Assembly (NCBI GenBank): GCA_035285865.1
Contig: JAYKHS010000026.1
Coordinates: 1 to 64,000, forward strand
Length of the DNA: 64,000 bases
Direction of reading: 5' to 3'
Source: Candidatus Sericytochromatia bacterium
Lineage (GTDB): Bacteria; Cyanobacteriota; Sericytochromatia; S15B-MN24; VGJW01
The position numbers were made by a program, and so were the translations under genes. A model generated the notes under the pieces. The model saw only the letters and a program-made list of their open reading frames with translations. It had not been told where the DNA came from and ran no database searches. This document shows positions 1,367 to 42,468 of the stretch, one piece after another. Every line of letters starts with the position of its first letter. Within the stretch, counting starts at the first letter, position 1.

Positions 1367-1439
1367 TGGGCGGTGAGGGACTCGAACCCGCGACATCCTC
1401 GGTGTAAACGAGGCGCTCTACCAGCTGAGCTAACCGCCC
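1367..1439 (-). tRNA. tRNA-Val(TAC)
   Basis: GGGCGGTTAGCTCAGCTGGTAGAGCGCCTCGTTTACACCGAGGATGTCGCGGGTTCGAGTCCCTCACCGCCCA. Cloverleaf with anticodon TAC and TTCGA T-loop. CCA not encoded. Confidence 0.97.
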
Positions 1440-6449: not shown

Positions 6450-7527
6450 CCGTGTCGCTGGATTCCTTCAGGGAGAGGGAGATGCGCTTCTCGTCGGGAC
6501 GGAACCGCTTGATGATGGCATTGACGGTCTGTCCGACTTCGACGACGTCCTCAGGACGCGCCACGTTGTCGCCCATCTCTGCGGTCGGCAGCAGGGCCTC
6601 GACACCCGGTTCGATCTCGACGAATGCACCGAAGGAAGCAAGCTTGGTGACCTTGCCGGGCACCTGCATGCCTTCGCTGAACTTCGCCGTGAGGCTGCTC
6701 CAGGGATCGTCTTGCAGCTGCTTCAGCGACAACGAGATCTTGTGCGCGTCGCGGTCGACCTTGAGCACCTTAAGGGTGACTTCATCGCCGATGTTCAGGA
6801 CGTGGCTGGGGTGCTGGATCCGCTGCCAGGAGATTTCCGAGATCGGGAGCAGGCCATCGATCCCGCCGAGATCGATGAAGGCACCGAAGTCGGCGATGCG
6901 GACAACCTTGCCGCTGATGATCTGGCCGACATCCAGTGTCTGCAGGATCTCGGCGCGCAGCTTGCCCTTCTCGGCGGCGACGGCCTGCCGGTGGGACAGG
7001 ATCAGCTTGTTGCGGCGCTGATCCACTTCGATGATCTTGAGCGGCACTTCGGTGCCGACGAGCTCGTCATGGGCACCCTTGGTGCGCAGCTGGGAGGCGG
7101 GGACGAAGCCGCGCAGCTTGTATGCGTCGACGATGATGCCGCCCTTGACGACACCGGTGACCCGAGCATGGATGACGGCCTCTTCCTCGAAGTCCTTCGT
7201 GGCCTGAACCCAACCACGGGCTTGGTCCACTCGCCGCTTGGAGAGTGTCAGCTGGCCATCCTCGTCCTCCTCGCGAAGGACATACAGCTCAAGCTCCTCG
7301 CCTTCGCGGATGTGGTCGTGGGGGTTGCCGACGGGACCGTTGGCCAATTCCTTCACGGGGATGAGGCCTTCGGACTTGCCGCCGACGTCGACCAACACTT
7401 GGTCGTGGGACACGCGGACGACGCGGCCGATCACGATGTCCCCGGGCTGGACATCGACAAAGGTGGAATCGTAATCGATGACCTCTTCGTCGAGGTCGGC
7501 CACGGCAATCGGATCAAGGGTGTTCAT
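6424..7527 (-). CDS. rpsA: 30S ribosomal protein S1 (short, 4 S1 domains)
   Basis: DVGGKSEGLIP, RGFVPASQL, DFGAFIDLGGIDGLL, FGAFVEIEPGVEALL. Confidence 0.93.
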   Translation of the reverse strand: MNTLDPIAVADLDEEVIDYDSTFVDVQPGDIVIGRVVRVSHDQVLVDVGGKSEGLIPVKELANGPVGNPHDHIREGEELELYVLREEDEDGQLTLSKRRVDQARGWVQATKDFEEEAVIHARVTGVVKGGIIVDAYKLRGFVPASQLRTKGAHDELVGTEVPLKIIEVDQRRNKLILSHRQAVAAEKGKLRAEILQTLDVGQIISGKVVRIADFGAFIDLGGIDGLLPISEISWQRIQHPSHVLNIGDEVTLKVLKVDRDAHKISLSLKQLQDDPWSSLTAKFSEGMQVPGKVTKLASFGAFVEIEPGVEALLPTAEMGDNVARPEDVVEVGQTVNAIIKRFRPDEKRISLSLKESSDTDGINEDED

Positions 7528-7584
7528 GGGGGGAGGGAAACCTGCTCTTCAAATGGATTCGGCGTCGATCAAACGCGCCATGCG

Positions 7585-7593
7585 ATTGTAGCA
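7585..7593 (-). promoter_or_regulatory. Extended -10 promoter upstream of rpsA
   Basis: TGcTACAAT ~58 nt upstream of the rpsA ATG. Confidence 0.55.
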
Positions 7594-7637
7594 TGCGCGG
7601 CGTGGCGGGAGGTGGCTGCTGGCTTGATGCTTGGCCT

Positions 7638-8486
7638 TCAGGCCAGGGCGAGCAGAGCTTCGCGGACTTCGGCGATGCCCGAGTCGGGGGTCGAGAGGCC
7701 GGAGGCCAGGCCAATGGTGCGGAAGCCCGCCAGCCAGTTGCTGTCGAGTTCGGCGGCCGTCTCCACCTGCAGCGTGGGGACGACGGAGCGGCACGCATCG
7801 GCAATCTGCCGGGTGTTGGCGCTGTGGTGCCCACCCACGACGACCATGGCATCCACGTCGCCGGCGAGCGCCATGGCTGCATCGATGCGCTTCTGCGTGA
7901 CGTCGCAAACCGTGTTGAAGACCCGCAGGTCCATGGACTTCATCGCGAGCAGGCCGATGATGTCGCGCGCCGGTGCCGGCGGGAAGGTGCTCTGGATGAC
8001 GACGCCGAGGCGAGCCTGCAGTCGGGGGAAGAGGCGATCCACGTCTTCCCTCGTCTGGCACACGGGCACTTGGCCGTAGTCCCCGGCCGTCAGGGCCTTG
8101 ACCTCGGGATGGTCGGCCTTGCCGATGACCGCCAGGGGATAGCCGGCCTTGCGGAGGGCCTCGGCGCGATGGTGCGTCCGCGTGACGAGCGGGCAGGTGG
8201 CATCGACCACTTGCCACCCGGCGTCACGGATCTGTCCCAGCTCACCCGGGGCAATGCCGTGCGTGCGCACCACGAGCGTGCCGGGCGTTTCCTGTTGCCA
8301 GGCCGCCACGTGCCGCAGGCCCTGGGCTTCGAGCGCCGCCACCTGCTGAGGGTTGTGGACCAGATGGCCGTACACGACAATGTCCCGGTTTTCCTGGCTG
8401 GCCGTAGCGCCGGCCTTTTCGGCAAGGCGCACGGCGCGCTCGACTCCGTGGCAGAATCCCGTTGCTTCAGCCTCGATGACCTTCAT
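7638..8486 (-). CDS. ispH: 4-hydroxy-3-methylbut-2-enyl diphosphate reductase
   Basis: GFCHGVERAV, LVHN, DATCPLV, HPEV, NTVC, SANT. Confidence 0.95.
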   Translation of the reverse strand: MKVIEAEATGFCHGVERAVRLAEKAGATASQENRDIVVYGHLVHNPQQVAALEAQGLRHVAAWQQETPGTLVVRTHGIAPGELGQIRDAGWQVVDATCPLVTRTHHRAEALRKAGYPLAVIGKADHPEVKALTAGDYGQVPVCQTREDVDRLFPRLQARLGVVIQSTFPPAPARDIIGLLAMKSMDLRVFNTVCDVTQKRIDAAMALAGDVDAMVVVGGHHSANTRQIADACRSVVPTLQVETAAELDSNWLAGFRTIGLASGLSTPDSGIAEVREALLALA

Positions 8487-23737: not shown

Positions 23738-24020
23738 AACCGGCGCGGAGTCGGCCGGAGATGATCCCCTCGTGATGAGGGTCATGACCTCTCTGACCCT
23801 CGCCGCCGTCATCATGCTGGTTGCCCTCGGGGGCTGGGCCTGGGTGCACCGACCGCGCTCCGCGCCGGACCTGACGACGGGTGGTCCCGGCGCTCAGGTC
23901 TTCCAGCAGCAGGGTTCCCCGGCGGACCTTGGGTCGCAGCAGGCCGAGCCTACCGACCCGTCAGCTATGAACCGGGATCAGAAGGCCCGTCGGCTCTTCG
24001 GGGGCATGAACGGCGACTAG
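23718..24020 (+). CDS. Small single-TM hypothetical protein
   Basis: One hydrophobic helix (LTLAAVIMLVALGGWAWV). Overlaps the amidase stop. Confidence 0.55.
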   Translation: MAEEHVETGAESAGDDPLVMRVMTSLTLAAVIMLVALGGWAWVHRPRSAPDLTTGGPGAQVFQQQGSPADLGSQQAEPTDPSAMNRDQKARRLFGGMNGD

Positions 24021-25669
24021 CCGCCGCGGCCACGACCCTTGCCGTATCGGCCACTGCCACGCTGTCCGGACTCGGCATCCTCTGGCCGGGCTTCGCTCAT
24101 GACCAGGTTCCAGCCGGTCATGTTCGCGAAGCGTGACGGGACGATGGCCGTGTCGACGTCCTTGCGCAACTGGTCGAAGGGGACGGTCAGGGATTCACCC
24201 GATCCGGAATCCGCCACGATGGCAATTTCCGCACCCGAGGCATCCTTGCGCAGTTCGAGTATGGTGACCTGATGAAGGACCTGCTGGCCGTTCTGGTTGC
24301 CGGTCACGCTTGCCGGGACGGGATAACCTTCGTCGAGTGCCTTGCGGATGCCCTCCCACGCCCGATCGCGGTTGCGATCCGTGACCGGCACGGGAACGGC
24401 CCGGTCCCCGGCCACGGCCTCGTAAAGCTTTTCGGCCTGAAGCTCCGTGAGGCCTCCGGGGACGCTTGCGGCCTGCCGGGTGGAAGCACTGGCGGTTCCC
24501 TCGGGCTCGTAGATCCCCTCGCCCCTGCGTCCACCGCCGTAGCGGCCGCCCCCGCGTCGACCACCTCCATAGACGCCGCCCCCGCGTCGGCCACCACCAT
24601 AGGAGCCGCCACCGATGCCTTCGTCCGAGCCGTCGTCGTAGCGTTCCGCGTGCGCCATGAGTGCTTCCTGGATCACGGCATCGGTCGAGGACCGGCCGAC
24701 CGTCTCGCCCTGCCAATCGACCGGAGCAAGCTCCAGGAGGTCGTCGTTGGCCAGGCGAACCTTGCCTTCCCAGATCAGCCCGGTAGCCAGCCGAAGATAC
24801 TCGGCCGGGTCCTGCTGCGCCATCAGCGTCTGGAGCGACGCCACGACGCAGGTGTTGGTGCCCTCTCCCTGGTAAACCTTGTCCGGATAGGCCACGTGGT
24901 TGATGAGGTTGGCCAATTGACCTGCTGGAGTGAGACCTCGCTCCCGGAGGCCCGCGGCCAGCGTCGGTGCCTGGGCCCGGGAGGCCAGCAGTTGCAGGAT
25001 GGTCGGGGGTACGTCGCTTGCGCGACCCGTAGGTGCCTTGCGCAGGAGCACGCCCTCCTCGAGGAGCCGGGCGAGCCCTGCGCGGGTACCTTCCATCACC
25101 TTGTCATCCAGCGCGCCCGCGAAGGATTCGAGGATGCCCACGAAACTGGCACGGTCCGACTCCGAGAGCTCGCGGAAGGCCTGACGCTGAGCAGCAGACA
25201 GGGACGCGATTCGGCTCTCGTGCTCCGGGCGTACCGGGACGGCGGCATGCTGCGCGCGGGCGGTCCGGGCCGCCATGGTTTCGGCGGCATCGTTCTGGTT
25301 GAACTTCTGCTGCGCTTGCGCCACGTGCTTGGCTTCCTGAATCTCGGCGGCAATCTCGAGCATCTTGCGGCTTGTTCCGCCAACGCCAGCCCCCCGATTC
25401 GCAGGCTGGCCGCCGCCCGTCAGGCCCTGCCAGAGGCGCTCGGCCCACGCCATCAGGCGCCGAACGAGCGAAGGCTTCTCGGCCGGCATTGCTGCAGGCG
25501 GGGGAGGTGGCAGCGGTGCCGTGCGCTGGAACCGGTCCGTTGCGGCTCGCGGACGGTCGTCCACCGCAGGGGGCGCTGACTCGGCCGTCGGGGACGGCGG
25601 TGCGATCGGTGCCGTGCCGTTGATGCGGCGGACGTCGTTCAAAAGGCCCAAGTGCTCACTCCTGTCCAC
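24017..25669 (-). CDS. Hypothetical effector-like protein with putative papain-like (C39-like) Cys protease domain and RGG/YGG insert
   Basis: Pro-rich disordered N-terminus, YQGEGTNTCVVAS, DPAEYLRLATGL, HQVTILE, ADSG. Confidence 0.6.
   Translation of the reverse strand: MDRSEHLGLLNDVRRINGTAPIAPPSPTAESAPPAVDDRPRAATDRFQRTAPLPPPPPAAMPAEKPSLVRRLMAWAERLWQGLTGGGQPANRGAGVGGTSRKMLEIAAEIQEAKHVAQAQQKFNQNDAAETMAARTARAQHAAVPVRPEHESRIASLSAAQRQAFRELSESDRASFVGILESFAGALDDKVMEGTRAGLARLLEEGVLLRKAPTGRASDVPPTILQLLASRAQAPTLAAGLRERGLTPAGQLANLINHVAYPDKVYQGEGTNTCVVASLQTLMAQQDPAEYLRLATGLIWEGKVRLANDDLLELAPVDWQGETVGRSSTDAVIQEALMAHAERYDDGSDEGIGGGSYGGGRRGGGVYGGGRRGGGRYGGGRRGEGIYEPEGTASASTRQAASVPGGLTELQAEKLYEAVAGDRAVPVPVTDRNRDRAWEGIRKALDEGYPVPASVTGNQNGQQVLHQVTILELRKDASGAEIAIVADSGSGESLTVPFDQLRKDVDTAIVPSRFANMTGWNLVMSEARPEDAESGQRGSGRYGKGRGRGG
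24509..24612 (-). repeat. ~3.5 x 30-bp in-frame tandem repeat encoding GGGxYGGGRR
   Basis: Units at 24531, 24561 and 24591 on the + strand, with synonymous divergence. Confidence 0.85.
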
Positions 25670-30101: not shown

Positions 30102-32042
30102 ATGTCCGAACCTGATTCCTATTCCTTGCTCGGCCTTGCCTGGACGGCAACCGAGGATGAAGTATGGGCGGCCTTTCACGCCCGTGCGGCCGACCTCGTG
30201 CGCGGGCGAGCCAGCGACGATTACGCCCGCCTCCTCGATGCCCTTCAGGAATTGACGGACCCGGAGCGCCGGGCCTTGCTGGATGCGCGTCTTCGGGGAG
30301 ACCAGGTGCCGCAGGCCCCGCCGCCGAAGCCCGAGCCCAGGCCGGTGATGCAGCGGACGCCGACGCTGGTCTTGCGGATGACCATGGATGAGATGGTCGA
30401 CCAGGCTCGATTCCGCGAGATGGCGGCGTTGCTCGACGAGGAGGCCAGAACCTCGGAACCTTCCCCGGGGCGTCTGGCCCTCAGGGCCTTTGTGGCCTTT
30501 CGCCTCGGGGACGATGCCTTGGGCTTCGAGCGCCTGAAGCAGGCTCTGGCAGCCGATTCATCCTGCGCCTATGCCCATTATGCACTGGCGGTGCATGTCC
30601 AGCAGCGCGGCCGTGCCGAAGATGCGTGGCGAATCCTGCAATGGGCCTTGCCGCACGTGGGCGGCGACGAGGACCTCTGGTGCAGGGTGATGGATCTTGC
30701 CGTGTTGCTGAAGGATCCCGACGGGATCGTGCCATTCCTGATGACCGCGCTCGAAGACCATCCTGTCCGTATCCGGATGGTCGCTTTGCTCGTGGACCGC
30801 TTGTTGGCCAACGATCAAGCTGTTGCGGCCATGAGCCGCGCCCGGACTTTGCTGGAGCGCTGCCCCACTCAGCCGGACGCGTGGTTCCTGCTCGCGCGCA
30901 CGCAGGCCAGCCTCGGGGATCGGGCCGGTGCGGACGAGTCCTGCTTGAAGGCGCTCGAGCTGGATTCCGGGCACGGACCTGTGCTGAAGTTTCTCAGTCG
31001 CCTCTACTTCGATGCGGTGCATCCGGGAACTCGGGCCTTGCTGGCCCGAGCCGCCGGGGTCCTGGGCAAGGATGCCGAAATTGCCGGGCTGCAGGGGCTC
31101 GAGTCGCTGCGGAGCGGGGAGCTCGAGGTGGCCGAGCGTCACCTCGAGCGGGCGCACGCCCTTGATCCGACGTCCGTGCGATTCAATGCCCCACTTGCCG
31201 AGACGCAACTGCGCCTTGGAAAGCCCTCCGAAGCACTCGGGCATGCGCGCCTGCTTGCCGGCAGGCAGCAGGAATCCGAACGAGGGCCGTTTCTCGCTGG
31301 CGAGGCCCTGCTGACACTGGGCAGACTCGAAGAGGCGATCGTCAGCTACCAGGAGGCCCTGAAGCGTACGCCCGGCCATATCGCCAGTCTCTATGCCGTC
31401 GCCAAGTGTTACGCCTCCCTGGGCCGACCGGCCGAGGCTCTGGGTTATCTGATGGCCCTGACGGCATCGACCGTGCCTGTACCGGAGGTTCTGGTGCTCA
31501 AGGCCCAGATGATGGGGGCCATCGGCCAAGGCACGCACGCCGAGTCGACGTGGCGCGAGGTGCTTTCGCTGGACCCGGAGCATCAGGAGGCTCGTGTCGG
31601 CCTTGTCGGTGTTCTGGTTGCCACAGGCCGTGATGACGAGGCGTGGGCCATCATCGATGCCTTGATGGCCAGTGCCGATGGTGACCCCGACGTGCTTGAC
31701 GGCTTGGCACGCATGTGGGCCGAAACGGGCCGGATCGACACGGCGATGGAGCTCTGGCGCAGAGCGCTCGTGTTGCGGCCGAGTGATCGGTCCCAGTACG
31801 AGCCCTATCTGGATGCGCTCGAGAAGTCGGAATCATGGGATTTGCTTCAAGGCACCCTGACGCAGGCCATGCGATTCTTCCCGAATGATGCGACGCTGCC
31901 CCTTCGTTTGGCTCGTTCCTACGAGGCCCGTGGTTTGACCCGTGAAGCCGTGCTGGCTTATCGACGCCATCTTCGGATGGCACCCGCTTCCGCCGAGGCG
32001 CGGATGGTGCGGTCGCGCATCGAGGCTCTGGGGGGCCAGTGA
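30102..32042 (+). CDS. J-like domain (no HPD) + multi-TPR protein
   Basis: DSYSLLGL..ATEDEV..LTDPERRALLD, followed by many TPR helical pairs. Confidence 0.8.
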   Translation: MSEPDSYSLLGLAWTATEDEVWAAFHARAADLVRGRASDDYARLLDALQELTDPERRALLDARLRGDQVPQAPPPKPEPRPVMQRTPTLVLRMTMDEMVDQARFREMAALLDEEARTSEPSPGRLALRAFVAFRLGDDALGFERLKQALAADSSCAYAHYALAVHVQQRGRAEDAWRILQWALPHVGGDEDLWCRVMDLAVLLKDPDGIVPFLMTALEDHPVRIRMVALLVDRLLANDQAVAAMSRARTLLERCPTQPDAWFLLARTQASLGDRAGADESCLKALELDSGHGPVLKFLSRLYFDAVHPGTRALLARAAGVLGKDAEIAGLQGLESLRSGELEVAERHLERAHALDPTSVRFNAPLAETQLRLGKPSEALGHARLLAGRQQESERGPFLAGEALLTLGRLEEAIVSYQEALKRTPGHIASLYAVAKCYASLGRPAEALGYLMALTASTVPVPEVLVLKAQMMGAIGQGTHAESTWREVLSLDPEHQEARVGLVGVLVATGRDDEAWAIIDALMASADGDPDVLDGLARMWAETGRIDTAMELWRRALVLRPSDRSQYEPYLDALEKSESWDLLQGTLTQAMRFFPNDATLPLRLARSYEARGLTREAVLAYRRHLRMAPASAEARMVRSRIEALGGQ

Positions 32043-32045
32043 AGG

Positions 32046-33095
32046 CTAGTCTCGGGCTGTCGGACGCGTGACCAGGGGCCGTCGACGCAGGACTTTGCGG
32101 GCGAGGTAGCCGCGTGCCCGCGGGGCCGCGGGGTCCCCTGGCGCCAGCTTGAGGAACGAGCGGAAGGCGGCAGCGGCCTCGTCGCTGCGCCCTTGGCGAT
32201 GCAGGGCGACACCGAGGTTGTAGTGCGCCGCTGCCAGCCCGGGCACCCGCTTGATGGCCCGTCTGCACGACGCTTCGGCGTCCTTGTGGCGGTTGAGGCC
32301 GATGAGGGCGAGCGCCCGGCCCACGTCCGCGACGGCTGGATTCGCTCCGGCCTTCGCGGCGGCCTCGAAGGCGGTCAATGCGTCCGCGGCACGGCCTTGT
32401 TGCCATGCACGGGCGCCGTCGGCAAGCAGGGCGTCGGCACCTGAGAGCCGTGGAGCGCGCACGGCCCGAGGCAGGGTCGTCGGCTTCGCCGGCAGCGTTT
32501 CCGGGCTGGCGGATGGGCGTGGTGCCGGAAGCGTTGTCCGGCCCGCATCCGGGGCGGGGCCGAGGTCAGGGCGTGCCAGCAGCCCGAAGGCGACCAGCCC
32601 GGCGGCCAAGGCCGGAAGCAGCCACAGAGCCTTGCTGCGATCGGAAACCTCGAGAGCGCGCGTCGGCGCCCGCCGGATGACCGGTGTCGTCCGGGCCTCG
32701 CGCGGCTCTTCCGGTGCGGTGGGTTCCGGATTCGGCATTGGTGGCGACTGGTCCGACATCCGCTCGACGGGCGCATCCCTGCGGCTACCCGAGCGGAGGC
32801 GGCGCTCCTCTTCGTGGCGCGCCATCTCGCGCTGGCGCGCCAGCTCGGCAAGGATATCCAGATCGGGGCCGGAGTGAAGGCCTGTGGACGCCTGGGTTGC
32901 CTCGGGCACGGGAGCGCCCAGGCTGGCCGCGATATCCGCCAGTCTTGCGAGCGCTGCCTCGGCCCGGGCCCGGGCGTCGGCCGTCGTGGCCACGTCGCGT
33001 CGGCGGCTCCATCGGTTTCGCGCGGCCTCCAGCGCACGCCTGAGTTCGGCCTCCGTGGCCTGTTCCGACAGGCCGAGCAATTCCCACGGCTTCAT
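32046..33095 (-). CDS. J-like domain (no HPD) + TM + TPR protein
   Basis: MKPWELLGLSEQATEAELRRA, TM LWLLPALAAGLVAFGLL, TPR AAAHYNLGVAL. Confidence 0.75.
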   Translation of the reverse strand: MKPWELLGLSEQATEAELRRALEAARNRWSRRRDVATTADARARAEAALARLADIAASLGAPVPEATQASTGLHSGPDLDILAELARQREMARHEEERRLRSGSRRDAPVERMSDQSPPMPNPEPTAPEEPREARTTPVIRRAPTRALEVSDRSKALWLLPALAAGLVAFGLLARPDLGPAPDAGRTTLPAPRPSASPETLPAKPTTLPRAVRAPRLSGADALLADGARAWQQGRAADALTAFEAAAKAGANPAVADVGRALALIGLNRHKDAEASCRRAIKRVPGLAAAHYNLGVALHRQGRSDEAAAAFRSFLKLAPGDPAAPRARGYLARKVLRRRPLVTRPTARD

Positions 33096-35191
33096 CCGGC
33101 GGCCCACCATGCACCGAGGACCGGGCCGCATGCCGGACAAGCACCATCCTCAAGCGCTTCGTCGCACACCGGGCAGAAGCGGCGGCCATGCTCCGACTCT
33201 GCCAGCACGAGCGGGGGCCAGCCCTCACGTTCGAGCCTGGCCCACAGCACACCTACCCAGGAGGGTGGTGCATCCGGTTCCTGCAACGTGCGCATGAGCC
33301 TTGCGAACTGCCTGGCACGACGCCTGCGCCGCTCGCCGTCCGTCGGGATGATGAGTCCTTCCGCCGCCAGTTCCCGGATGCGTTGGCGCACGGCTGCACT
33401 GCCGGCCAGTCTTCCGGGCAGTTCCAGCGGGTGGCGCCCGGACGCGATGGCTTGCCATCGTCCGTCCTCGCGGAGGATCCGGAAGGCATGGGCCGCCCAT
33501 CTGAGGGTGCCTGTGGCCAGAGCCACCATGATGGCCACGGCGTCGTCGGGCGAGGTTTCCGGCGGTGGGGCGTCGGCCTTGCCACCCCAGGACAGTTGCC
33601 AGCCCGGACGCAAGTTGCGGCCACCGTGACCCGTGAAGGGGTGCATGTCGGGATCGTAAGGCCTCGGCGGTCTCCTTGCCACGCTTCTCACGCCTGCCGG
33701 CGCCGTGGCCGCCATGGCGGCCGCTCTTACGGCACGGGCCGTGAGCGCGCCCATCAGATCGGCCACCTGCGGGACGACGGCCCCAGGGCTCGGCCCAACG
33801 AGCCGCTCGGCCCATCCCGGGCCTCCGGCTGCCTCGCGCAAGGGATCCTCTGCACTTCCGGCCAGCATGGCCAGAGCTTCCCGGACGGCGGCATCGTGCT
33901 CCTCGGCCAGCGCAGGCAGGGCCGCTCGCTGGATGATGGTCCCCAGATACCGCAAGCGCTTGAGGCCTTCCCGTTCGACCATCGCGCGCCAGGCCTGCAG
34001 GGAGCGGGCCATTCTGTCGATTGCGGTGCCCTGATCCTCAAGCACGGCACGCCGAGTCCGCTGTTCGCGGAGGGTTTCGAGCATCTGCCACCAAGGCTTG
34101 ATGTCCGCGATGGCAGCCATGACCTCATCCGTCGCCAGGCTTCGGCCTTTCGGCCACAGGCCTGGGCGGAACTTCAGTCGTCCGAGCCGCTCCTCGGCCT
34201 GGCCTGAAGCGAGCGGCATGGCGGCCGTCAGGTCCTCCAACACGCGCTCGGTTGCTTCCTTGCGTCGCGCAATGCCCGTCTGAACGACCTCGAGCAATTC
34301 GAGCCACGAATCGACGGTGGCCAGTGCGGGGCGTGGATTGCCCGACCAGAGATCTTCACCCAGAGCCGCGTGCAAGGTTTCGCGGGCTTCCTCGATCAAG
34401 GCGCCAGGTGGTGTCCAGCCGGGTTCACGCACCATCGCGAGAAGATCCAGTTCGGCCAGCAGCCACGCCCGAAGGGTCTCCCCGCGCACGGGACCCTCGG
34501 CCAACATGTCCGAGGCGACGGACACGGGATCCACTCCTGCGGGCAGTCGGGGATCGAGAGCCCGCCATGTGGCCAGCAGTTCTCCGGATTCCGGTCTGCG
34601 GAGCTCCAGAAGCTGCTCCAACAGGCGAGCTTCGAGAACCGCCTGGACACGCTCTCGATCATGACCCGTCACTTGCCCGGTCCAGACTCCCGGGGGCAGG
34701 GGGGGCTCGGGTTCCCGCATCAAGTCTCGCAGCAGGATGCAGGCCGCCGCCGTCCCGTCTGGGGCGAGCCTGCCTCCGCCACGTCCCTCTCCTACCCACG
34801 TGACGGCAACGGGACGGCCCGTGGCCGACCCCCATCCGAGGAGGGTATCCAAGAGCAGGGATTCAGGATCGTTAGCACGAAGCACGAGATGGACAGCTCC
34901 TGCATCTGCGGCGAGGATGCGCCGCCAGTCCGTCTCTGCCTGCAACAGGGCGTGAACCAGGCTGTCGTCCCCGGGGGTCACGTCAAGCCAGGGGGCACTG
35001 GCCCATGCCGGGGGCAAGTCCGCCACGAGCTGCTGGATGGGGCCCGGGAAGTCTTCAGGGCACGGACCGGAGACCACCGCAGTCAGTCGTGGTCTCGGCC
35101 TCCCGGCGGGAGCGACGGCCATGGCCAGCAGATCATCCAGCATGGCGAGCGTGTGCGCACCGGCAGAACCGATGCCGACCATCAAGGTCAC
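33092..35191 (-). CDS. Degenerate tubulin/FtsZ-like protein with helical region and C-terminal zinc ribbon
   Basis: N-terminal LMVGIGSAG loop, long helical mid-section, CPVC-x8-CPAC. GTGA/ATGA coupling to both neighbours. Confidence 0.55.
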   Translation of the reverse strand: MTLMVGIGSAGAHTLAMLDDLLAMAVAPAGRPRPRLTAVVSGPCPEDFPGPIQQLVADLPPAWASAPWLDVTPGDDSLVHALLQAETDWRRILAADAGAVHLVLRANDPESLLLDTLLGWGSATGRPVAVTWVGEGRGGGRLAPDGTAAACILLRDLMREPEPPLPPGVWTGQVTGHDRERVQAVLEARLLEQLLELRRPESGELLATWRALDPRLPAGVDPVSVASDMLAEGPVRGETLRAWLLAELDLLAMVREPGWTPPGALIEEARETLHAALGEDLWSGNPRPALATVDSWLELLEVVQTGIARRKEATERVLEDLTAAMPLASGQAEERLGRLKFRPGLWPKGRSLATDEVMAAIADIKPWWQMLETLREQRTRRAVLEDQGTAIDRMARSLQAWRAMVEREGLKRLRYLGTIIQRAALPALAEEHDAAVREALAMLAGSAEDPLREAAGGPGWAERLVGPSPGAVVPQVADLMGALTARAVRAAAMAATAPAGVRSVARRPPRPYDPDMHPFTGHGGRNLRPGWQLSWGGKADAPPPETSPDDAVAIMVALATGTLRWAAHAFRILREDGRWQAIASGRHPLELPGRLAGSAAVRQRIRELAAEGLIIPTDGERRRRRARQFARLMRTLQEPDAPPSWVGVLWARLEREGWPPLVLAESEHGRRFCPVCDEALEDGACPACGPVLGAWWAAG

Positions 35192-36525
35192 GGGTGGCGC
35201 CTCCACCACGATCGGGCGTGACCTTGAGCCACGCGCTCCAGGCGATCTTGCGCTGCTTGCCCATCCGGACCCAGATGCATTTCCTTCAGGGTGCTCCCCT
35301 CGCCCCATGTCAGCCACCATCCGTCCGTGCGCCATTCTCGCAGGTCGGCAGCCCGATCCCAGAGTGCTTGTCGGGGGTCTTCGGCTGCAGGCCGAGTCCA
35401 GACTGGCGTGTCACTCAGCGCCCCTGCCGCCGGGGAAGCCGGGAGGCTCCCGCCGCGGATGTTTCCCCAGCCGGTCGCAGGCCTTTCCGGCAGGATCGGT
35501 TCGAACCAATGGCCGTCGATGACTCCGCCGTGTCGTCGATGCGCAGGAGGCGACGAGGTCGTGGTCCGCGTACCCCGAGATGGCGTCTGGCGCGGCTCGG
35601 CGGCTTTCCATGCATCCTCGACGAGGCGCCACGGCCCTGTCGGATCCGGCAGGTGCCGGCGACGCAGCCGCCAGCCCTCCTCGTCGAGGCGCTGGCCCAG
35701 GGGTGCCACGGCGAGATCCCGGGCGCGCACGAGTTGCAGGAGCAAGCTGCGATCGTGCCGGTCGGCTTCTTCGGCCAGGTCTCCCAACTCCAGCGGCAGC
35801 ATGTCCTCGTCCATCTCCGGCACGGTCCAGCCATCGGTCGGCAGGTGACGGGCCACGAACGCGATGGCACGTGCCACGGCCTCTGGGCCGAGAACGCTGC
35901 GAACGGCCTCGAGATGGACGGCGAGGCTGTCGGCCATCCACGCGAGGGGCCAGCGGCCATTGTGCCACGCCCTTGCTGCCGCTTCGCGCGGGCCAAAGCC
36001 TTCGGTCGGCCAAGGCCAGAGGCTCCTCCGAAGGGCCGTATCCAGTTCGGTCTGCAGGTTTGCGTCGGGATCCAGGACCTGCCACGGGCCGGGAAGTTCC
36101 TCGATGACGGGAGCCCACGCCGGCAGCATCCGCGGGGTGCTCGAGGATTCCGCAGGTTCCGGCCTCAGCGCCAGCATGTGGGCCGAGGTTGGCAGTTCCC
36201 CGCGTGCCCAGAGCGTCAGGGCCGAGGCCAGCAGGCGTTGCGGGGGATGCGCATCGTTCCCCTCTAGATTGCGGATGCCCGGGACCTCCAGGCGACTGCC
36301 CGGTTGCACGATCGCGAGGATGCTGGCATCGGCGGGGGCTGTGCCAAGCCAGGCCCGAAGGGCGGCTGCACGAATCTCTCGGCTGTCGAGCAGGACAACG
36401 GTACCCGGGTTGAACGCGCTCGGCCACGACGTGAAACCTGTCGTGCCGATCGGGAGGGCCGGGCGTGCGAGCCCCAGGGCTTCCCGGGCGTGACGGCCGA
36501 TTGCGTGGACCTCAGGTGGACTCAT
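35188..36525 (-). CDS. Hypothetical protein (possible second, highly degenerate tubulin-like paralog)
   Basis: Translationally coupled at both ends. N-terminal VHAIGRHAREALG beta-Gly-helix. Trp-rich. Confidence 0.6.
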   Translation of the reverse strand: MSPPEVHAIGRHAREALGLARPALPIGTTGFTSWPSAFNPGTVVLLDSREIRAAALRAWLGTAPADASILAIVQPGSRLEVPGIRNLEGNDAHPPQRLLASALTLWARGELPTSAHMLALRPEPAESSSTPRMLPAWAPVIEELPGPWQVLDPDANLQTELDTALRRSLWPWPTEGFGPREAAARAWHNGRWPLAWMADSLAVHLEAVRSVLGPEAVARAIAFVARHLPTDGWTVPEMDEDMLPLELGDLAEEADRHDRSLLLQLVRARDLAVAPLGQRLDEEGWRLRRRHLPDPTGPWRLVEDAWKAAEPRQTPSRGTRTTTSSPPAHRRHGGVIDGHWFEPILPERPATGWGNIRGGSLPASPAAGALSDTPVWTRPAAEDPRQALWDRAADLREWRTDGWWLTWGEGSTLKEMHLGPDGQAAQDRLERVAQGHARSWWRRHP

Positions 36526-36800
36526 CCCCGGATCCAGACTCCGAACCAGACGGTGGCACCGAGCACGACGAAAACGGTGGCCAGCATGACCTGTGTGGTT
36601 GGCGGATGCCCCGGACAGAAGGCCAGGATGGCCGCGACCGTGGCAAGGATGCAGCCGGAACCGAGTCCTGCCATGGCCGACTCGGTCGGGCGGTCCGGAT
36701 GAGCCGTCAGGAGCAGGCGCGGTATCCCCCATGTGGCCCACAGCGCGACAAGCAGGCCGGCCAGCATGATTGCGGTTCGCGTAGCCAGAACGTCATCCAT
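36522..36800 (-). CDS. Small 3-TM membrane protein
   Basis: Three hydrophobic segments in 92 aa. Overlaps both neighbours. Confidence 0.65.
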   Translation of the reverse strand: MDDVLATRTAIMLAGLLVALWATWGIPRLLLTAHPDRPTESAMAGLGSGCILATVAAILAFCPGHPPTTQVMLATVFVVLGATVWFGVWIRG

Positions 36801-37278
36801 GGCTGTCCGCCTGATCCAGCACGAGTTCCACCGTGGCCTCGGCAAAACCGACTTCGCGGTAGAGCGTTCGGGCTGCCGTGTTCCCGACATGCGTGAACAG
36901 CCGCAGACGCTCCACGCCGATTCGGTGCGCGATGGCCCGTGCATCCTCGAGCAGGCTCTTGCCGAGGCCACGTCGGCGATGCCCGGGGTCCACGGCCAGC
37001 ACGACGATGAACAAGTCGCGTTCGCCCGTTACCGGGTGATGGGTCGGCAGCGACCAGCAGCAACCCGTGACCTGTCGGGTCACATCGCGCGTGACCCGGA
37101 CATGGCCGCCTTGCTCGCGATACCACGCCCACTGGGCCTCGATGCGTTCCCGTGCCTCGCTGCGCGTCAATCGGGCCAACGCGGGGTAGCTGGCGTGGAC
37201 GGCTTGCCCGAACAACGCGAGCAGGGCTGGGCGATCGTCGTCGACGGCATCCTCGACCACGCGTGGATCAATGCTCAT
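36793..37278 (-). CDS. GNAT family N-acetyltransferase
   Basis: LAVDPGHRRRGLGKSLL, NTAARTLYREVGF. Confidence 0.9.
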   Translation of the reverse strand: MSIDPRVVEDAVDDDRPALLALFGQAVHASYPALARLTRSEARERIEAQWAWYREQGGHVRVTRDVTRQVTGCCWSLPTHHPVTGERDLFIVVLAVDPGHRRRGLGKSLLEDARAIAHRIGVERLRLFTHVGNTAARTLYREVGFAEATVELVLDQADSHG

Positions 37279-40200
37279 GGTGTTTCAGGACATCGGAAAG
37301 CCATGTGCGGAACGGTCGGTTGCGGTCCACCACTTCCTTGTTCGCCCAGGGTGTCCAGGGCCGTGTCCAGTGAACTCCCCCGACCAGATAGCGGTAGCGG
37401 CCGGGGTGCTCGACAGGCCAGGGATCGACGAGGTAGCGTTTGCCCGGAGTGGCGATGTTCCCCACCATGACCCAGTGGGCATCCTGATCGGAATCGACCG
37501 ATCGCAGCACGATCACTTGGTCCAGGTCTTGCTTCCAGCTCAGCAGGGTCCCTGCGGGGGCTTCGGCCAACTGCACCTCCAGCCGTTCCGCCTTGGGCTC
37601 GGGCCAGGCAGGCAGGCTCTCGCGTATCAGGTCGGTCGCACTGGGTCCAAGAAGAAGAACCATGCCGGTAGCCAGTCCTGCAAGGGTTCCTGAAGTGCGA
37701 TGCAGGACGCGTTTCATCGGCGTGAGGTGGTCCATGGCTCGTTCGAGGCCGGGCACGTGGAGCACAGGCGTCAGGGGCTCGAGCTGGCGCGCGGTCTTCA
37801 GGGCGAAGCGGCCGCGGCCCCTCACGGGGTCGTAGGCCAGAACCAGGGGGCGGTGTCCCTGTGGAACCAGCGCCGGCAGCAGGCTCATGGCCTGGTCGCG
37901 CTGGCGGCGGACCTCTCGAGTGCGCCACCACGAGAGGGGCTGGTGCCACCAGCTCGGGTCCTTGCGCCCTTGTGCCACGGCTCTGGGGCCGCGATCGCCA
38001 GCGCCCCTGCGGACCGCCATGTTGCCGTGCGCCGTCGTGTCCTCGTCGTCGTCGAGGTCGGCGTTCTCGAGCAGCGCCCGTCCCTCGGCGGCATCTTCAT
38101 CGTCCTCGAGCAGGCCGCGCTGGGCGGGGGCGGCTTCGATGGGCCCCTCGTAACCTTCTTCGGCCAACAGCTTCATCAGCAGTTCGTCCTGGTCGTCGTC
38201 CAGGCCCGGGTAGGCCATCGCCGGGCCTGAGGGCACGGGCGCGTCGTGAGGCAGCGGGTCGAGGGCGTCCAGACGCCTGCCCGCCTGGCGCAGGCTCCCG
38301 GGTATCATCCAGCCGATGAGGCCCAGCTCCTTCAGGCGCTCCAGGTCGTCCGGGTTCAATCTGGTCACGGGAACAACGGCCGTGATGCGATGCACGGACT
38401 GACCTTCCGGACCCCACGCGCAATCCCCGAGCAGTGCGGCCTCGCCTTCCGCCGGCCAGGCCACGTCGACGGGAACTGAGATGCGATGGTCCGGATGCAG
38501 CATCTCGAGCCCGAGGAAACGCGAAAGAGCCGACTCCGGCAACGGCACGAGCGGCGCGTCGTTCTGACCGGATGGTTCGCCCGCTGCGCGGCTGTCCGTC
38601 CCGTGTCCGGGCCCTTCGATTCCGTCTGCGGCTTCGATGGAATAGCGGACGAGTTCCGGCTCGGTGGCACGCGCGGTGTTCAACACGTCTTCGGGAGCAG
38701 AGCCGAGGATGGCGCGCAAGGCCGAGACATCCGACATCGGGTCGTCCCACGCCTCCTCGGCGGGATGTTCCGTTTCGGGCACGGCGGTGGCAGACGGCGC
38801 GACGACCGATGGGTCCAGGGGGCCCGTGCCGTAACGCTTGAACAGGGCATCGAGTTCCGGGTCCTGTTCCATCCGGTTCAGCGTCTCGAGCAGCTGTTCC
38901 TCCGGTTCATCGCCGAACGCGTCCTCCGATACGCCTTCCATCGTCTCGTCGGCGAGGGGCGCTGGCTCATCCCCGGTTGTCCCGGGGGCGGCCCGCTCAT
39001 CCAGGGCCAGTCGATCCTCCTCTTCATCGACTGCAAAGGGGTCATCCGCCACGAATGGCTCATCGGCCTCCTCGATGGCGTCATCCTGAGGGTCGGCTGA
39101 GGACCTGTTCCGCAAACTCTCGGGCAGCAGTTCCTCTACCGTCGGGAAAGGGATCTCGCCACTCAGGAAGCGTTCGAGGAGGTCTTCGGGCTCCTCCAGC
39201 ATGTCCAGTACTTCGAGCTGAGCGGCTTCCAGCACGAAGACCGGCGTGTCGGGGATGGGCAGGATGACAAAAGCGGGTGCCGCCTCCCCTTCCGGCGCTT
39301 GCCCGGAATCGGGGACGGATCCTGCCGGGATGTCGAATATCGAGTCCACGCTCGGGAACGTGGGCTCGGGCTCGGGCTCGGGTGGCGGCGGGGGGGGCTG
39401 TGCCAGATGCGGCCTCGGTCGCGGTGGGGCTGCCGGCAGAACCTCCGGTGACGGGAGCGGCGGCGGGGCGGGTTCCGCGGCAGGATCGGTCGTTGCTTCC
39501 AGAACCTCGAGTGCCTGCAGGACCTCGTCCAGTTCGGCAGGCGGTTGCGCGGCCTTCGGCTTGCTCTGGGGGATCGGGGTCATGCCGCCGTAGCGAATCG
39601 CATTCTCGATCAGGACCGGGTCGTCGAGCGGAATCCAGCCTTCCGGGGTTTCCACCGGAGGCCAGGTATCCTCGTGATCCTTGGAGCGCCATCGGAATCC
39701 CAGCCCCGGCAGGTGGAAGCTCGGGGGCAAGTTGCCATCCTCGAAGCCTTCCAAAGGAGCATCCGGATCCGGTTTCTCGTTGGCGCGAAGCTCGATCTCA
39801 TGCCGTGCAGCCATCTTGTCCAGACGGTCTGTCCTGGAGCCGACCCCAGCCGTCTTGGACCAGCCGTGTCCTGCGAAGGACTCGGGGGGGCGCTGCAAGG
39901 AGACCGGCTGTACCTTGGGGACGACGAGTCTGTTTCCGGCGCGCTCCCGAGCTATCGAGAGACGGTCGTCATAGGCCTTGCGGGTAATCGGGTCCAGGAG
40001 TTCGGCTTCTGCGTGCTTGAGCATGGCCAGTGCGGCTACCGCATCGTTGTGCAAGGTCGGGTGGTCGACGCGCCCGTTCCAGAAGGTCCGGTAGTTGTCG
40101 ATGGCGGAGGCGAGTTCGGCTGCCGAGCCCGTTTCCGGCAGGCCAAGGAGCGTGTAGTAGTCCGGTACGTCCGCTTCCGCGCCCATCGGGGCCGTACCGG

Positions 40201-40582
40201 AGGTGATGCCCACGATGGCGTCACGGATGCCATCCGAATCTCGGCCGGGCAGACGGACGACCCGGACGCCCTGGGCCGCCATCCGTTCGATGAAGCTTCG
40301 GGGGTCATCCAGTGGTGCGGTACCCGGTGTGCCGGGCAGAAGGCAGAAGTGCGTGGAGGCCAGCAGGCGGCCGGAGTCCTGCGCGAAGGCTGTACGGATG
40401 GCGCGGACGACCTCACCGACGACGTCCTCGTTGCCGGCGACCATCACCCCTTCCCAGGTACGTCCGGAGCCGCAGGCATCGAGGAAGCCCTGGATGTTCC
40501 CGGGCCGATGACGGATGGCCTCGATTCGGCCTTGCGGCCATTGCACCGGCCGAGGCAGAGCGTCAAGCAGGAGCCAGGTCAT
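37268..40582 (-). CDS. Large multidomain protein: alpha/beta domain, J-like domain, acidic Pro-rich IDR, JAB-like domain, TM, C-terminal beta (FN3-like) domain
   Basis: PDYYTLLGL..LLDPITRKAYD, D/E/P-rich tract, EAALLG..ITAVVP..LIGWMIPG, TM GTLAGLATGMVLLLG, LSW..YLVD..GRYRYLV. Confidence 0.7.
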   Translation of the reverse strand: MTWLLLDALPRPVQWPQGRIEAIRHRPGNIQGFLDACGSGRTWEGVMVAGNEDVVGEVVRAIRTAFAQDSGRLLASTHFCLLPGTPGTAPLDDPRSFIERMAAQGVRVVRLPGRDSDGIRDAIVGITSGTAPMGAEADVPDYYTLLGLPETGSAAELASAIDNYRTFWNGRVDHPTLHNDAVAALAMLKHAEAELLDPITRKAYDDRLSIARERAGNRLVVPKVQPVSLQRPPESFAGHGWSKTAGVGSRTDRLDKMAARHEIELRANEKPDPDAPLEGFEDGNLPPSFHLPGLGFRWRSKDHEDTWPPVETPEGWIPLDDPVLIENAIRYGGMTPIPQSKPKAAQPPAELDEVLQALEVLEATTDPAAEPAPPPLPSPEVLPAAPPRPRPHLAQPPPPPPEPEPEPTFPSVDSIFDIPAGSVPDSGQAPEGEAAPAFVILPIPDTPVFVLEAAQLEVLDMLEEPEDLLERFLSGEIPFPTVEELLPESLRNRSSADPQDDAIEEADEPFVADDPFAVDEEEDRLALDERAAPGTTGDEPAPLADETMEGVSEDAFGDEPEEQLLETLNRMEQDPELDALFKRYGTGPLDPSVVAPSATAVPETEHPAEEAWDDPMSDVSALRAILGSAPEDVLNTARATEPELVRYSIEAADGIEGPGHGTDSRAAGEPSGQNDAPLVPLPESALSRFLGLEMLHPDHRISVPVDVAWPAEGEAALLGDCAWGPEGQSVHRITAVVPVTRLNPDDLERLKELGLIGWMIPGSLRQAGRRLDALDPLPHDAPVPSGPAMAYPGLDDDQDELLMKLLAEEGYEGPIEAAPAQRGLLEDDEDAAEGRALLENADLDDDEDTTAHGNMAVRRGAGDRGPRAVAQGRKDPSWWHQPLSWWRTREVRRQRDQAMSLLPALVPQGHRPLVLAYDPVRGRGRFALKTARQLEPLTPVLHVPGLERAMDHLTPMKRVLHRTSGTLAGLATGMVLLLGPSATDLIRESLPAWPEPKAERLEVQLAEAPAGTLLSWKQDLDQVIVLRSVDSDQDAHWVMVGNIATPGKRYLVDPWPVEHPGRYRYLVGGVHWTRPWTPWANKEVVDRNRPFRTWLSDVLKHHEH

Positions 40583-40584
40583 CT

Positions 40585-42468
40585 TCAGCGGCCCCAGGCA
40601 TCCCAGGGGGGACGTGCACGAAGCCCGACGGCGGCGGTGTCCCAGGGCTGGCCCAGCACTCCGAGTCGATCCTGAGGCAACATCAGGTAGCGGTAGATGC
40701 CATCGGCCGCGACATGGTCCTGAAGTGGCTGGCCGAGGCGCAACCGCAGGCGTCTGCCTTCGCCGAGCCGCACATGCTCGCCTCCGGGCCCGAGATTCTC
40801 GCGGATGACCCAGATGCCCGCCAGATGGGGCTCCGGATTGCGCAGGCCCAGGGACAGGGTCTGGCGGTCGAGGGACAGCTCCATCTCTCCTTCGACAGAC
40901 TTGAATGCCTTCTCTGCCGGCCAGTCGAACGGCAGGGCACGAGACCAAGCGACGGGCTGGCCGTCCCGGTCCAGCTCGGCCAGGCGGTACCAGACCCTGC
41001 TGCTCGGCGGATCTTTGCCCAGCAGGGGCTTGGGCAGGGGCAGGTGATCGGCGCCGGGCGGCACCATGCCGAGGCGTCGCCTGTCACCGCTGCGGCACTC
41101 GGGACGGAGGCATCCGTACAGGGCGAGCGGTTCCTCGCGGGAAGTCCACGTCAGGACGGGCGTGCTGCCGACGAGGGCCAGCGCAAAGGTCTGCGGTCGA
41201 TGGATCCACAATGTCGTCAGCAGTGCGACAAGGGCCAGGGCCGCACCTTGTCGGCGATCCGCCGGGGCCATGAAGTCGCGTACGGAGCGGCTGACCGCGC
41301 GATGCCACGGCCGCCGCGCCCCGCGGATCAGGCCCCCGGTGGCCGGGTCGAAGACGGGCTCCCCGCGTGTCGGCGTCCGGGGCATGCGGCCGACCGTGCG
41401 TTGCAGCAGGACAGCCTCGGCCTTGACGTCGTCAACGACGAGGCAGGTCTGCCAAGCATGGGGCATCAGGGCTTCATGCAGGCCACCGTCGTCCCGGACG
41501 AGTCCGCCTCCGGGGCGCATCACATAGGTCCCGACGGGCACGAGTGCGGTGCCCGGGTGCTGAGCACCGGTCTGCAGCAGGCCTTGCAGCACGCGGCGCG
41601 CTTCCTGACGCAGCCCGGGGCCGTCCGTTCCATCGGTCAGGGGGACGGCCGCGAGGATCGTCACGTCGACGCGGGGGCTGCCGTGAAGATCGCGTGCCGG
41701 GGACACGCGTCCCATCAGCAGCCCCCGTCGGGTCTCCACCGGTTCTCTCGGATCGAGCGCACGGCGGACAGCCGTAGGCATGCAGACCCGCAAACTCGCG
41801 TCGCCACCCGGGATCATCCACAGGTCGTCGGCCATGCGTCCCATCCCCACGGGCAGGGCCGGCCAATCGATCGTCGGATCGACTTCGGGTTCTGCCGGGC
41901 TCTCCAGCTCCGACCAAGGGTCATCCCCCTCGCCGACGAATACGGGAGTCGGCGGCTCGGGAATCCCTTCCCGGATCGGGTGGTCGTCCTCGATGCCCAA
42001 GGAGTCCAGGGCATCGCCCAGTGCCTCGTAGAGGCCGGCCATCGCCGAGAGGTCGGCCTCGGGGGGGGCTTCCTCGACCGTCACTGCCCCGACGTTGCCC
42101 GGGCTGTCCGGAACGTGCGCGGCAGCCGGCGGCGCAGCATCCGTCATCGGACTCGCCTGGGGCGATGCCACGGTTGCCGCAGTTGCCGCCTGCGGCTCAG
42201 GGCTCGTGAAGTCCTCGCTCGAGCGGGCCGGGGCTTCGCCATCCAGCAGGAAGCGGTCCAGCGTCGGGATGGCCGCGCCCCCTTCCGGGAAGGCGCCTTC
42301 CAGCGCGGACAAGAGGCCGAGTCCGCCCCCCTCGCCCTCGCCGGGTTCGTCCGTGAACGCGGCCAGCAGCGCCTGACGCTCCTCGACGGTCGTGCGGGCT
42401 CCTTCGAGGCCGCCGCCCGGTCCAGGAGGCGTGCGTGCCTCTTCGTCGGGAGAGCCAGCCGGAACCAT
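40585..42468 (-). CDS. Acidic IDR + inactive JAB/MPN-like domain + TM + tandem beta (FN3-like) domains
   Basis: ETRRGLLMG..VTILAAVP..VGTYVMRPG..D..LH..CLVVD follows the JAB layout without HxH. TM AALALVALLTTLWI, LTW..WYRL, DGIYRY. Confidence 0.7.
   Translation of the reverse strand: MVPAGSPDEEARTPPGPGGGLEGARTTVEERQALLAAFTDEPGEGEGGGLGLLSALEGAFPEGGAAIPTLDRFLLDGEAPARSSEDFTSPEPQAATAATVASPQASPMTDAAPPAAAHVPDSPGNVGAVTVEEAPPEADLSAMAGLYEALGDALDSLGIEDDHPIREGIPEPPTPVFVGEGDDPWSELESPAEPEVDPTIDWPALPVGMGRMADDLWMIPGGDASLRVCMPTAVRRALDPREPVETRRGLLMGRVSPARDLHGSPRVDVTILAAVPLTDGTDGPGLRQEARRVLQGLLQTGAQHPGTALVPVGTYVMRPGGGLVRDDGGLHEALMPHAWQTCLVVDDVKAEAVLLQRTVGRMPRTPTRGEPVFDPATGGLIRGARRPWHRAVSRSVRDFMAPADRRQGAALALVALLTTLWIHRPQTFALALVGSTPVLTWTSREEPLALYGCLRPECRSGDRRRLGMVPPGADHLPLPKPLLGKDPPSSRVWYRLAELDRDGQPVAWSRALPFDWPAEKAFKSVEGEMELSLDRQTLSLGLRNPEPHLAGIWVIRENLGPGGEHVRLGEGRRLRLRLGQPLQDHVAADGIYRYLMLPQDRLGVLGQPWDTAAVGLRARPPWDAWGR

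Follow-up and report, generated by a model that had tools for sequence, protein, structure and literature searches.

What is made by an operon in which JAB-like, tubulin-like and J-like proteins, tetratricopeptide repeats (TPR) and an acetyltransferase lie side by side, and in which the catalytic motifs are largely eroded? The question is raised by positions 30,102 to 42,468 of a stretch of 64,000 nucleotides (the window) taken from the forward strand of contig JAYKHS010000026.1 (assembly GCA_035285865.1, Candidatus Sericytochromatia bacterium). It can be said that the operon is real, selected, undescribed and restricted to one family, and that its core is a pair of paralogous membrane proteins whose MPN domains stand at several stages of catalytic loss. 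As the original prediction had it, seven minus-strand genes (A to G, 42468 to 32046) abut or overlap in the six-frame listing with translations and converge on a J-like/TPR gene. The sole gap, of 2 nt, lies between A and B, and overlaps of 11, 8, 4, 4 and 4 nt follow at B-C, C-D, D-E, E-F and F-G. Gene H (30102-32042, plus strand, 646 aa) ends 3 nt from the end of G. The GC content at third codon positions is 0.74-0.80 across all eight genes, and the block has the ordinary GC of the window and the average GC of the genome. It is flanked by an RND efflux pair and a divergent leucyl-tRNA synthetase gene, LeuS (both labels given by eye); the latter adjoins the locus in this genus and in the related genomes G005 and G006, which fixes its position. 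A recent mobile island is ruled out by the genome-like GC and this fixed position. No promoter-like site was seen in the locus, and terminator-like sites numbered 0 against 4.8 +/- 2.2 in shuffles, which is a weak result.

The order and orientation of all eight genes are identical in the three other genomes of the genus (4/4 with this one; in G003 a contig break falls inside B), and synteny among relatives is therefore conserved. Profiles of A and of the C-terminal half of B match 8 of 47 genomes of the class, exactly the eight of the family, and none of the 39 others, while the outer domains of A were found in 8 of 251 genomes of the phylum, again all in the family. The N-terminal domain of B together with its J domain is matched lengthwise by five only among the matches listed from 1.84 billion representatives, the rest covering mainly the J stretch. 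Metagenome scans with F and with P0008, a compact ortholog of B, found no relative. Within the family the claim of one eight-gene system proves too wide, as only A, B and the GNAT gene are invariant and the content beyond the GNAT varies. The locus of G006 is A-B-GNAT only, those of G005 and G007 are A-B-GNAT-G, and D, E and F are missing from all three. In G004 the order is A-B-GNAT, a small TM (transmembrane) protein, E', F', a beta-propeller, an opposite-strand gene, a Tubulin_2/DZR gene and G; this locus was assembled from two contigs joining within F', the tail of which matches the tails of P0002 and P0003. Because several family genomes are 64-86% complete, a gene missing from a locus need not be missing from the organism.

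Selection on these genes was estimated from the ratio of non-synonymous to synonymous divergence (dN/dS) within the genus, computed for A-F and H; synonymous divergence (dS) is near saturation and the values are rough. They amount to 0.18-0.23 in A and B and to 0.23-0.37 in C, D and E; F lies at 0.18-0.27 and H at 0.13-0.23, while the comparison genes LeuS and AcrB give 0.08-0.12. All seven genes so computed show purifying selection, and decaying pseudogenes are ruled out by the open frames and the ratios below 0.4. The dead JAB domain of A is 75-81% identical within the genus, compared with 47-58% for its disordered region; together with the N-terminal domain of B (69-85%) it is among the best-kept parts. 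The outer domains are 58-82% identical and are not hypervariable.

Gene A (40585..42468, minus strand, 627 aa) comprises a conserved N-terminal stretch of about 80 aa, an acidic, proline-rich intrinsically disordered region (IDR) at residues 81-200, the dead JAB/MPN domain at about 205-385, a TM segment at about 408-422 and two outer beta domains. The acidic IDRs contain 21-26% D/E and 2-7% K/R. The first 80 residues (window 42229-42468) are a genus-specific extension, 70-94% identical in the genus, with short amphipathic helices within the acidic disordered region which are possible binding motifs. The window protein has no Pfam match. Its orthologs match Prok-JAB at E 3.6e-5 (G004) and 4e-4 (G006), both failing the curated cut-off, the alignment is collinear across the whole JAB-TM-beta region, and intact JABs are retrieved by the A profile with E down to 1e-18; on these Prok-JAB/JAB matches, the alignment and the retrieval, A belongs to the JAB/MPN fold. 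The JAMM/MPN+ motif E...HxH...S..D is present in A of G004 and absent from the window protein, where the E-H-H-S-D columns read T-V-R-D-D. The same columns in the eight orthologs read EHHSD in G004, NHHSD in G006, ERHHE and ERHQE in G005 and G007, and TVRDD or TVRED in the four genomes of the genus, that is, one intact, one with the glutamate replaced, two partly lost and four fully lost. H-H-S-D is kept by all 20 other JABs of the order. The JAB-TM-extension layout is shared, with the ligands intact, by five proteins of sister families. Of the three whose loci were compared, two sit inside loci with E1, E2 and ubiquitin-like (Ubl) genes (G014 by Pfam, G013 by eye) and the one of G021 does not. 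In trees built under LG+G4 the eight A sequences form one side of a branch, which is unresolved under a mixture model. The stem leading to the genus measures 2.1-2.2 substitutions per site and the tips 0.03-0.25, a shape that fits a burst of change when catalysis was lost, followed by renewed constraint.

Gene B (37268..40582, minus strand, 1104 aa) is the longer paralog. It carries a receiver/flavodoxin-like domain (1-130), a J domain without HPD (137-215), a long acidic IDR, an MPN-minus domain at about 697-935, a weak TM segment at about 965-985 and an outer beta-sandwich. The compact ortholog P0008 was folded in its place, from a 10-row alignment that includes the window protein, and the model reached a pLDDT of 71. 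Its residues 2-133 match receiver/flavodoxin folds (Z 10.3, root-mean-square deviation (rmsd) 3.6 A, 114 residues aligned), the likeness to small GTPases and to receivers being about equal (Z 9-10). Neither the phospho-acceptor Asp after beta-3, the Lys after beta-5 (both judged by eye) nor a P-loop motif is present in the alignments. This pseudo-receiver had been missed by the original prediction, as had the intact JAB of a relative and the intact Ubl/E1/E2/JAB loci of the genome. The J domain of P0008 is recognised with Z 9.9, its HPD being absent, and Pfam DnaJ matches B of G004 at E 8.5e-6. For the third domain Foldseek returned an archaeal Rpn11 homolog, Rpn8-Rpn11, CSN and eIF3f (E 5e-3 to 1.4e-2, prob 0.84-0.99), and the MPN domain of B aligns with that of A at E 1.9e-4 over 106 columns in hhalign; these two lines place it in the MPN fold with moderate strength. 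It has no metal ligands in any ortholog and in this genus is split by an acidic insert. Within the insert lies an acidic amphipathic motif (38141..38200, minus strand), nearly invariant in the genus and similar to the motif at the C-terminus of F', the tubulin paralog of the G004 type. A strict pattern of it turns up a single time among the 5.6 million six-frame codons of the genome, and a tblastn search of this assembly did not find F' itself. The P0008 model ends with a TM helix and an all-beta domain. Basic residues tend to precede the TM segment, consistent with an N-in topology, but the TM segments of the window proteins are weak.

Active/inactive MPN pairs form the cores of the eukaryotic proteasome lid, CSN, eIF3 and BRISC, and in eIF3 both MPN members are inactive. 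As in Rpn11-Rpn8, CSN5-CSN6, eIF3h-eIF3f and BRCC36-Abraxas, active and inactive MPN paralogs are adjacent in G004; in the genus of the window both are inactive. The pair modelled was G004 A(28-265) with B(500-678), in three runs with three controls. The ipSAE values were 0.65, 0.71 and 0.01 (median 0.65), the best control gave 0.01, and two of the three runs pass a mark that 116 of 157 solved pairs attain, as against 2 of 215 mismatched ones; for models made with one's own alignments these counts are only rough. Contacts agree between the runs to at least 23%, the partner pLDDT is at least 69, and two invariant elements, D38-L39-W40 in A and W518 in B, lie in the interface. The model suggests a bacterial MPN+/MPN- pair formed by the A and B domains of this relative. 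The likeness to the eukaryotic pairs extends to the structural matches and to this passing heterodimer model; A and B differ from them in being bacterial, membrane-anchored and without PCI subunits. The modelled interface consists of N-terminal strands and a beta-hairpin, whereas that of Rpn8-Rpn11 is helical, and because of this difference the likeness is probably convergent.

Tubulin-like proteins are the next component. Gene F (33092..35191, minus strand, 699 aa) is a degenerate FtsZl1-type/Tubulin_2 protein, and the tubulin-like fold proposed earlier is upheld for it. Residues 1-180 of its model match FtsZ 2vaw (Z 10.1, rmsd 3.4 A, 155 residues) as well as PhuZ and CetZ; a long coiled coil (about 289-445) follows, then a helical domain and a C-terminal zinc ribbon, the latter being the sole Pfam match of F (DZR, E 0.0044). 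The FtsZl1/Tubulin_2 layout of FtsZ-like N-domain, coiled coil and helical C-domain is thus seen in F, in a model of low confidence. The three best feature matches of F in the Atlas are Tubulin_2 clusters at 0.88-0.89, under the bar of 0.9. The GTP-binding loop GGGTG(S/T)G is absent from F in all four genomes of the genus, no match to PF13809 was obtained and only its first 17 columns beat 20/20 shuffles, and a PDB sequence search with the F alignment gave chance matches only. In G004 a gene with Pfam Tubulin_2 and DZR lies directly upstream of the G ortholog and F' is a second paralog, matched at E 4.5e-14 (hhalign) by a profile of 24 full-length Tubulin_2 proteins. Gene E (35188..36525, minus strand, 445 aa) is a probable ortholog of G004 E' (803 aa), matching its N-terminus at E 0.0039, a level reached by none of 20 shuffles. 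The Tubulin_2 profile does not detect E by hmmsearch or hhalign, neither E nor E' rises above shuffles against Tubulin_2, and the Atlas gave no usable match; judged from sequence, E is possibly an extremely eroded FtsZl1 paralog. A C-terminal resemblance of E, E' and F to Tubulin_2 seen by eye was dropped, as profile comparisons did not beat shuffles. This assembly, which is 83% complete, yielded no intact Tubulin_2.

Tubulin_2 genes were also noticed elsewhere. In a cyanobacterial locus (L114 4774-12512, G233) a vWA-like gene precedes two Tubulin_2 genes in tandem; the second of these (hhalign E 2e-21) lacks the glycine motifs and carries a hydrophobic hairpin, and a pair of one intact and one degenerate tubulin is thus found outside the family as well. 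A further, unlinked Tubulin_2 of G004 (L071 1-3363, contig C103) has a repeated acidic/proline tail and an altered GTP loop. In another family, G046 has an intact Tubulin_2 operon with vWA-like, zinc-ribbon and coiled-coil genes (L070 7515-19301), with a GNAT of related type on the opposite strand at a distance of 8 kb.

The remaining modules named by the original prediction, namely a GNAT with an intact motif, a three-TM protein, J-like domains and TPRs, are supported by Pfam, orthologs and hydrophobic segments. Gene C (36793..37278, minus strand, 161 aa) is the GNAT acetyltransferase, with Acetyltransf_1 above the cut-off (E 7.5e-15) and the acetyl-CoA motifs intact in Pfam and alignment. 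It stands directly downstream of B in all eight family genomes, and each of the 27 genomes of the order has a full-length match to it (E <= 1.2e-26). In none of the 17 GNAT neighbourhoods compared outside the family did a profile of A, B or E match at E <= 0.05, the sole other matches being Tubulin_2 at 0.02 and F at 0.046 on a GNAT open reading frame (ORF). Regulation of the complex by acetylation, as first suggested, is not supported on these counts, and a GNAT dedicated to this system is ruled out by its order-wide presence in unrelated contexts. Among eight gene lists outside the family, three have korA/korB-like and three or four have amidase-like neighbours (labels by eye), and three GNAT loci hold a TPR gene of about 640 aa resembling G and H. 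Gene H, with a J-like domain and a TPR array, is a conserved neighbour whose membership in the system is doubtful; it occupies the place where a TPR gene converges on korB in sister families. The GNAT and the position of H predate the A-B unit, because both are present at korAB-like loci without A or B in sister families, and, as the GNAT directly follows B in every genome of the family, it may have been recruited later. Gene D (36522..36800, minus strand, 92 aa) has three hydrophobic (TM) segments, and G004 has a 74-aa hydrophobic ORF in its position, a positional match only. Gene G (32046..33095, minus strand, 349 aa) has a J-like N-terminus without HPD, a proline-rich linker, a TM segment at 154-175 and outer TPRs. 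Pfam DnaJ matches G of G005 at E 0.0018 and H at E 0.16, the TPRs of the locus were identified by Pfam, and the HPD motif is not conserved in the J domains of B, G or H. Taken with the TVRDD columns of A and the missing GTP loop of F, this supports the catalytic erosion that had been proposed.

Two other contigs of this genome carry ThiF/E1, E2-like and intact JAB genes. The first locus (L056 3037-11655, G000:C3) consists of an AAA ATPase, a TM/vWA-like gene, a ThiF E1, a TM protein, a Ubl-like gene, an E2-like gene, an intact JAB with a hydrophobic tail and two coiled-coil genes, and similar loci occur in G013 and G014. The second (L055 9816-13069, G000:C14) has a Cys-rich/OB-like protein, a ThiF E1, a short ORF, a UQ_con E2 and an intact JAB. 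The Ubls of both loci, the E2 on C3 and the vWA domain were labelled by eye and have no Pfam match or fall outside the Pfam scan.

No named system with this composition was recognised, in agreement with the original prediction. PADLOC gave no match for A-G, NCBIfam none for A, B, D, E and F, and Pfam, NCBIfam and PADLOC returned nothing informative for A, B, D and E of the window. FtsZl1 operons, in the sections of the source consulted, are defined with vWA, kinase, GTPase and OmpA genes (PMC2875224, Makarova and Koonin 2010). None of these is found among the eight genes by Pfam and NCBIfam, very diverged forms being possible in E, and F lacks the GGGTG(S/T)G loop. Conversely, profiles of the A/B type found nothing in 20 cyanobacterial FtsZl1 neighbourhoods (991 ORFs), where no JAB, J or GNAT partners turned up. 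Similar in outline are the tubulin/FNIII/DnaJ/TPR systems which excerpts of another study centre on DO-GTPase and GAP1 (PMC7159879, Kaur et al. 2020). As far as those excerpts go, the GAP1-N2 systems share with this locus tandem tubulin-coiled-coil genes, FNIII-type, DnaJ and TPR modules, membrane proximity and inactive enzymes, but no DO-GTPase, GAP1, vWA or Hsp70 was found among the eight genes by Pfam, and the present locus is vertical, conserved, not hypervariable and built around MPN domains. Active JABs occur, according to the available part of a preprint, in Bil, Bub and CBASS (10.1101/2024.11.21.623953). The MPN of A is homologous to the JABs of the E1-E2-Ubl loci of this order; unlike Bil, Bub and type II CBASS, the operon lacks E1, E2 and Ubl (the E1/E2/JAB loci lie on other contigs) and its JAB is dead, membrane-anchored and duplicated. 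A literature search of partial coverage, with paper supplements and their possible neighbourhood lists outside it, found no description of the operon or of a bacterial MPN+/MPN- pair.

The most likely role, kept from the original prediction, is that of a non-catalytic membrane scaffold. A lineage-specific scaffold or receptor assembled from Ubl-system and FtsZl1 parts, with a constitutive role in the envelope, is proposed tentatively, with confidence a little short of even. A and B would be paralogous single-pass membrane proteins descended from a membrane-anchored JAB peptidase of the order's Ubl-E1-E2 systems, their cytoplasmic MPN domains pairing as an MPN+/MPN- heterodimer and their beta domains facing outward; the IDRs, the J-like, pseudo-receiver and TPR modules and the GTPase-dead FtsZl1 proteins would lie on the inner side. 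In this genus both MPNs, the receiver, the J domains and the tubulin domain would be non-catalytic, and the complex would therefore work by binding. The acidic IDRs, short amphipathic motifs and J-like and TPR modules may recruit partners, the degenerate FtsZl1 coiled-coil proteins included, and the envelope-spanning whole may do a constitutive envelope-organising or membrane-remodelling job. The gene order, the folds, the loss of motifs, the purifying selection and the restriction to the family are shown, and the pairing of A with B is modelled in the G004 orthologs; the topology, the recruitment of E, F and G and the cellular role are what we infer.

Several observations weigh against this proposal. 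No result shows a cellular action of the complex. The pairing was modelled for the G004 orthologs and not for this genome's pair, one of the three runs scored 0.01, and the passing model may reflect memory or likeness, as solved MPN heterodimers exist; taken whole, the interface also shows no more conservation than the remainder of either domain, with random sets doing as well in 1895 and 4490 of 10000 cases. The clade supports of 86/89 for A and 80/86 for A with the membrane-type JABs are not starred. Of the acidic-IDR, JAB-like, TM and beta architecture first described, the JAB and the IDRs are supported, while in this genome both A and B have TM helices that are only marginal (no Kyte-Doolittle window of 19 residues exceeds 1.6), those of relatives being clear. 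The outer beta domains are FN3-like by pattern, with no Pfam or PDB sequence match (the PDB search with those of A gave chance matches only), and FN3 was confirmed by no library. The structure searches expected to settle the folds did return MPN, J and FtsZ folds for the P0008 and F models, but all Foldseek E-values, those of the MPN domains included, lie above 0.001. The F model is weak (pLDDT 54, pTM 0.29), F has no significant match to the 24-protein Tubulin_2 profile by hmmsearch or hhalign, and the tubulin genes are missing from three of the eight family loci and are therefore not core.

In a quite different role, played in a conflict, A and B would read the ubiquitin-like system of the cell itself or act as its decoys, the dead MPNs binding at the membrane either Ubl-tagged proteins or phage inhibitors of the active JABs, and the degenerate tubulins assembling as an effector, as proposed for tubulin-bearing GTPase-centric systems. 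The two ThiF/E1, E2-like and intact-JAB loci of the same genome speak for it, as do the five intact JAB-TM-extension proteins of sister families, two of them inside E1/E2/Ubl loci; we consider it unlikely, though worth serious weight, as an arms-race signature is lacking (the position is fixed, every family genome has the locus, the outer domains are not hypervariable and PADLOC does not match A-G) and no GTPase, MoxR, vWA or toxic effector is found among the eight genes. It may also be that there is no single system at all, and that a two-gene A-B unit was inserted upstream of a housekeeping GNAT, with D-E-F, G and H as accretions sharing a transcript without forming a complex. The GNAT and convergent TPR gene that flank korAB-like genes in sister families without A/B would agree with this, and so would the reduction to A-B-GNAT in G006, the addition of G alone in G005 and G007 and the extra genes of G004, one of them on the opposite strand. 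Against such accretion stand the stop/start overlaps kept over four species at near-saturated dS, the reappearance of the acidic tail motif of G004-type F' inside B in this genus and the recurrence of J-like modules in B, G and H, which leave it rather improbable.

The three J-fold domains (Z 9.9 for the B ortholog) and the TPR arrays invite the thought of a membrane protein quality-control hub, where clients would be passed to or from DnaK and the MPN pair and GNAT would handle tagging; the receiver/GTPase-like and J arrangement even resembles Rbj (6jmg, E 3.5e-3). The HPD motif is required for Hsp70 stimulation, no J domain here has it conserved, and neither DnaK nor GrpE is encoded in the locus; such a hub is held to be very improbable.

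Three further observations were made in passing. A gene for an N4/N6 DNA methyltransferase is divergent from A in G004 (L016 5755-7038) and G005 (L019 ~6965-8250) and was not found in this assembly by tblastn. A 550-aa protein at window 24017-25669 (minus strand) contains repeated GGGRRGG units rich in Gly and Arg and, judged by eye, a peptidase-like Cys motif, with no Pfam match below E 0.26. The only Rfam match in the window is one tRNA gene (1367-1439, minus strand).

The envelope scaffold proposed here, built on A and B, has a reach of one small uncultured family, and its function is argued by inference. A bolder form of it, which we hold as doubtful, would be that one lineage of bacteria arrived independently at an MPN+/MPN- heterodimer of the eukaryotic style and used it as a transmembrane receptor, duplicated from the deubiquitinase of its own Ubl system and disarmed stepwise (intact, Glu lost, metal ligands lost, all lost). 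The dimer would have been kept as a hub for reading Ubl or for signalling, with GTPase-dead tubulin-like polymers anchored to it across the envelope. The operon connects FtsZl1 operons with Ubl conjugation, two bacterial systems that are poorly understood. Within one orthologous operon the JAB passes through graded stages from intact to fully dead, and the origin of a pseudo-deubiquitinase scaffold is thereby directly testable with a few recombinant domains.

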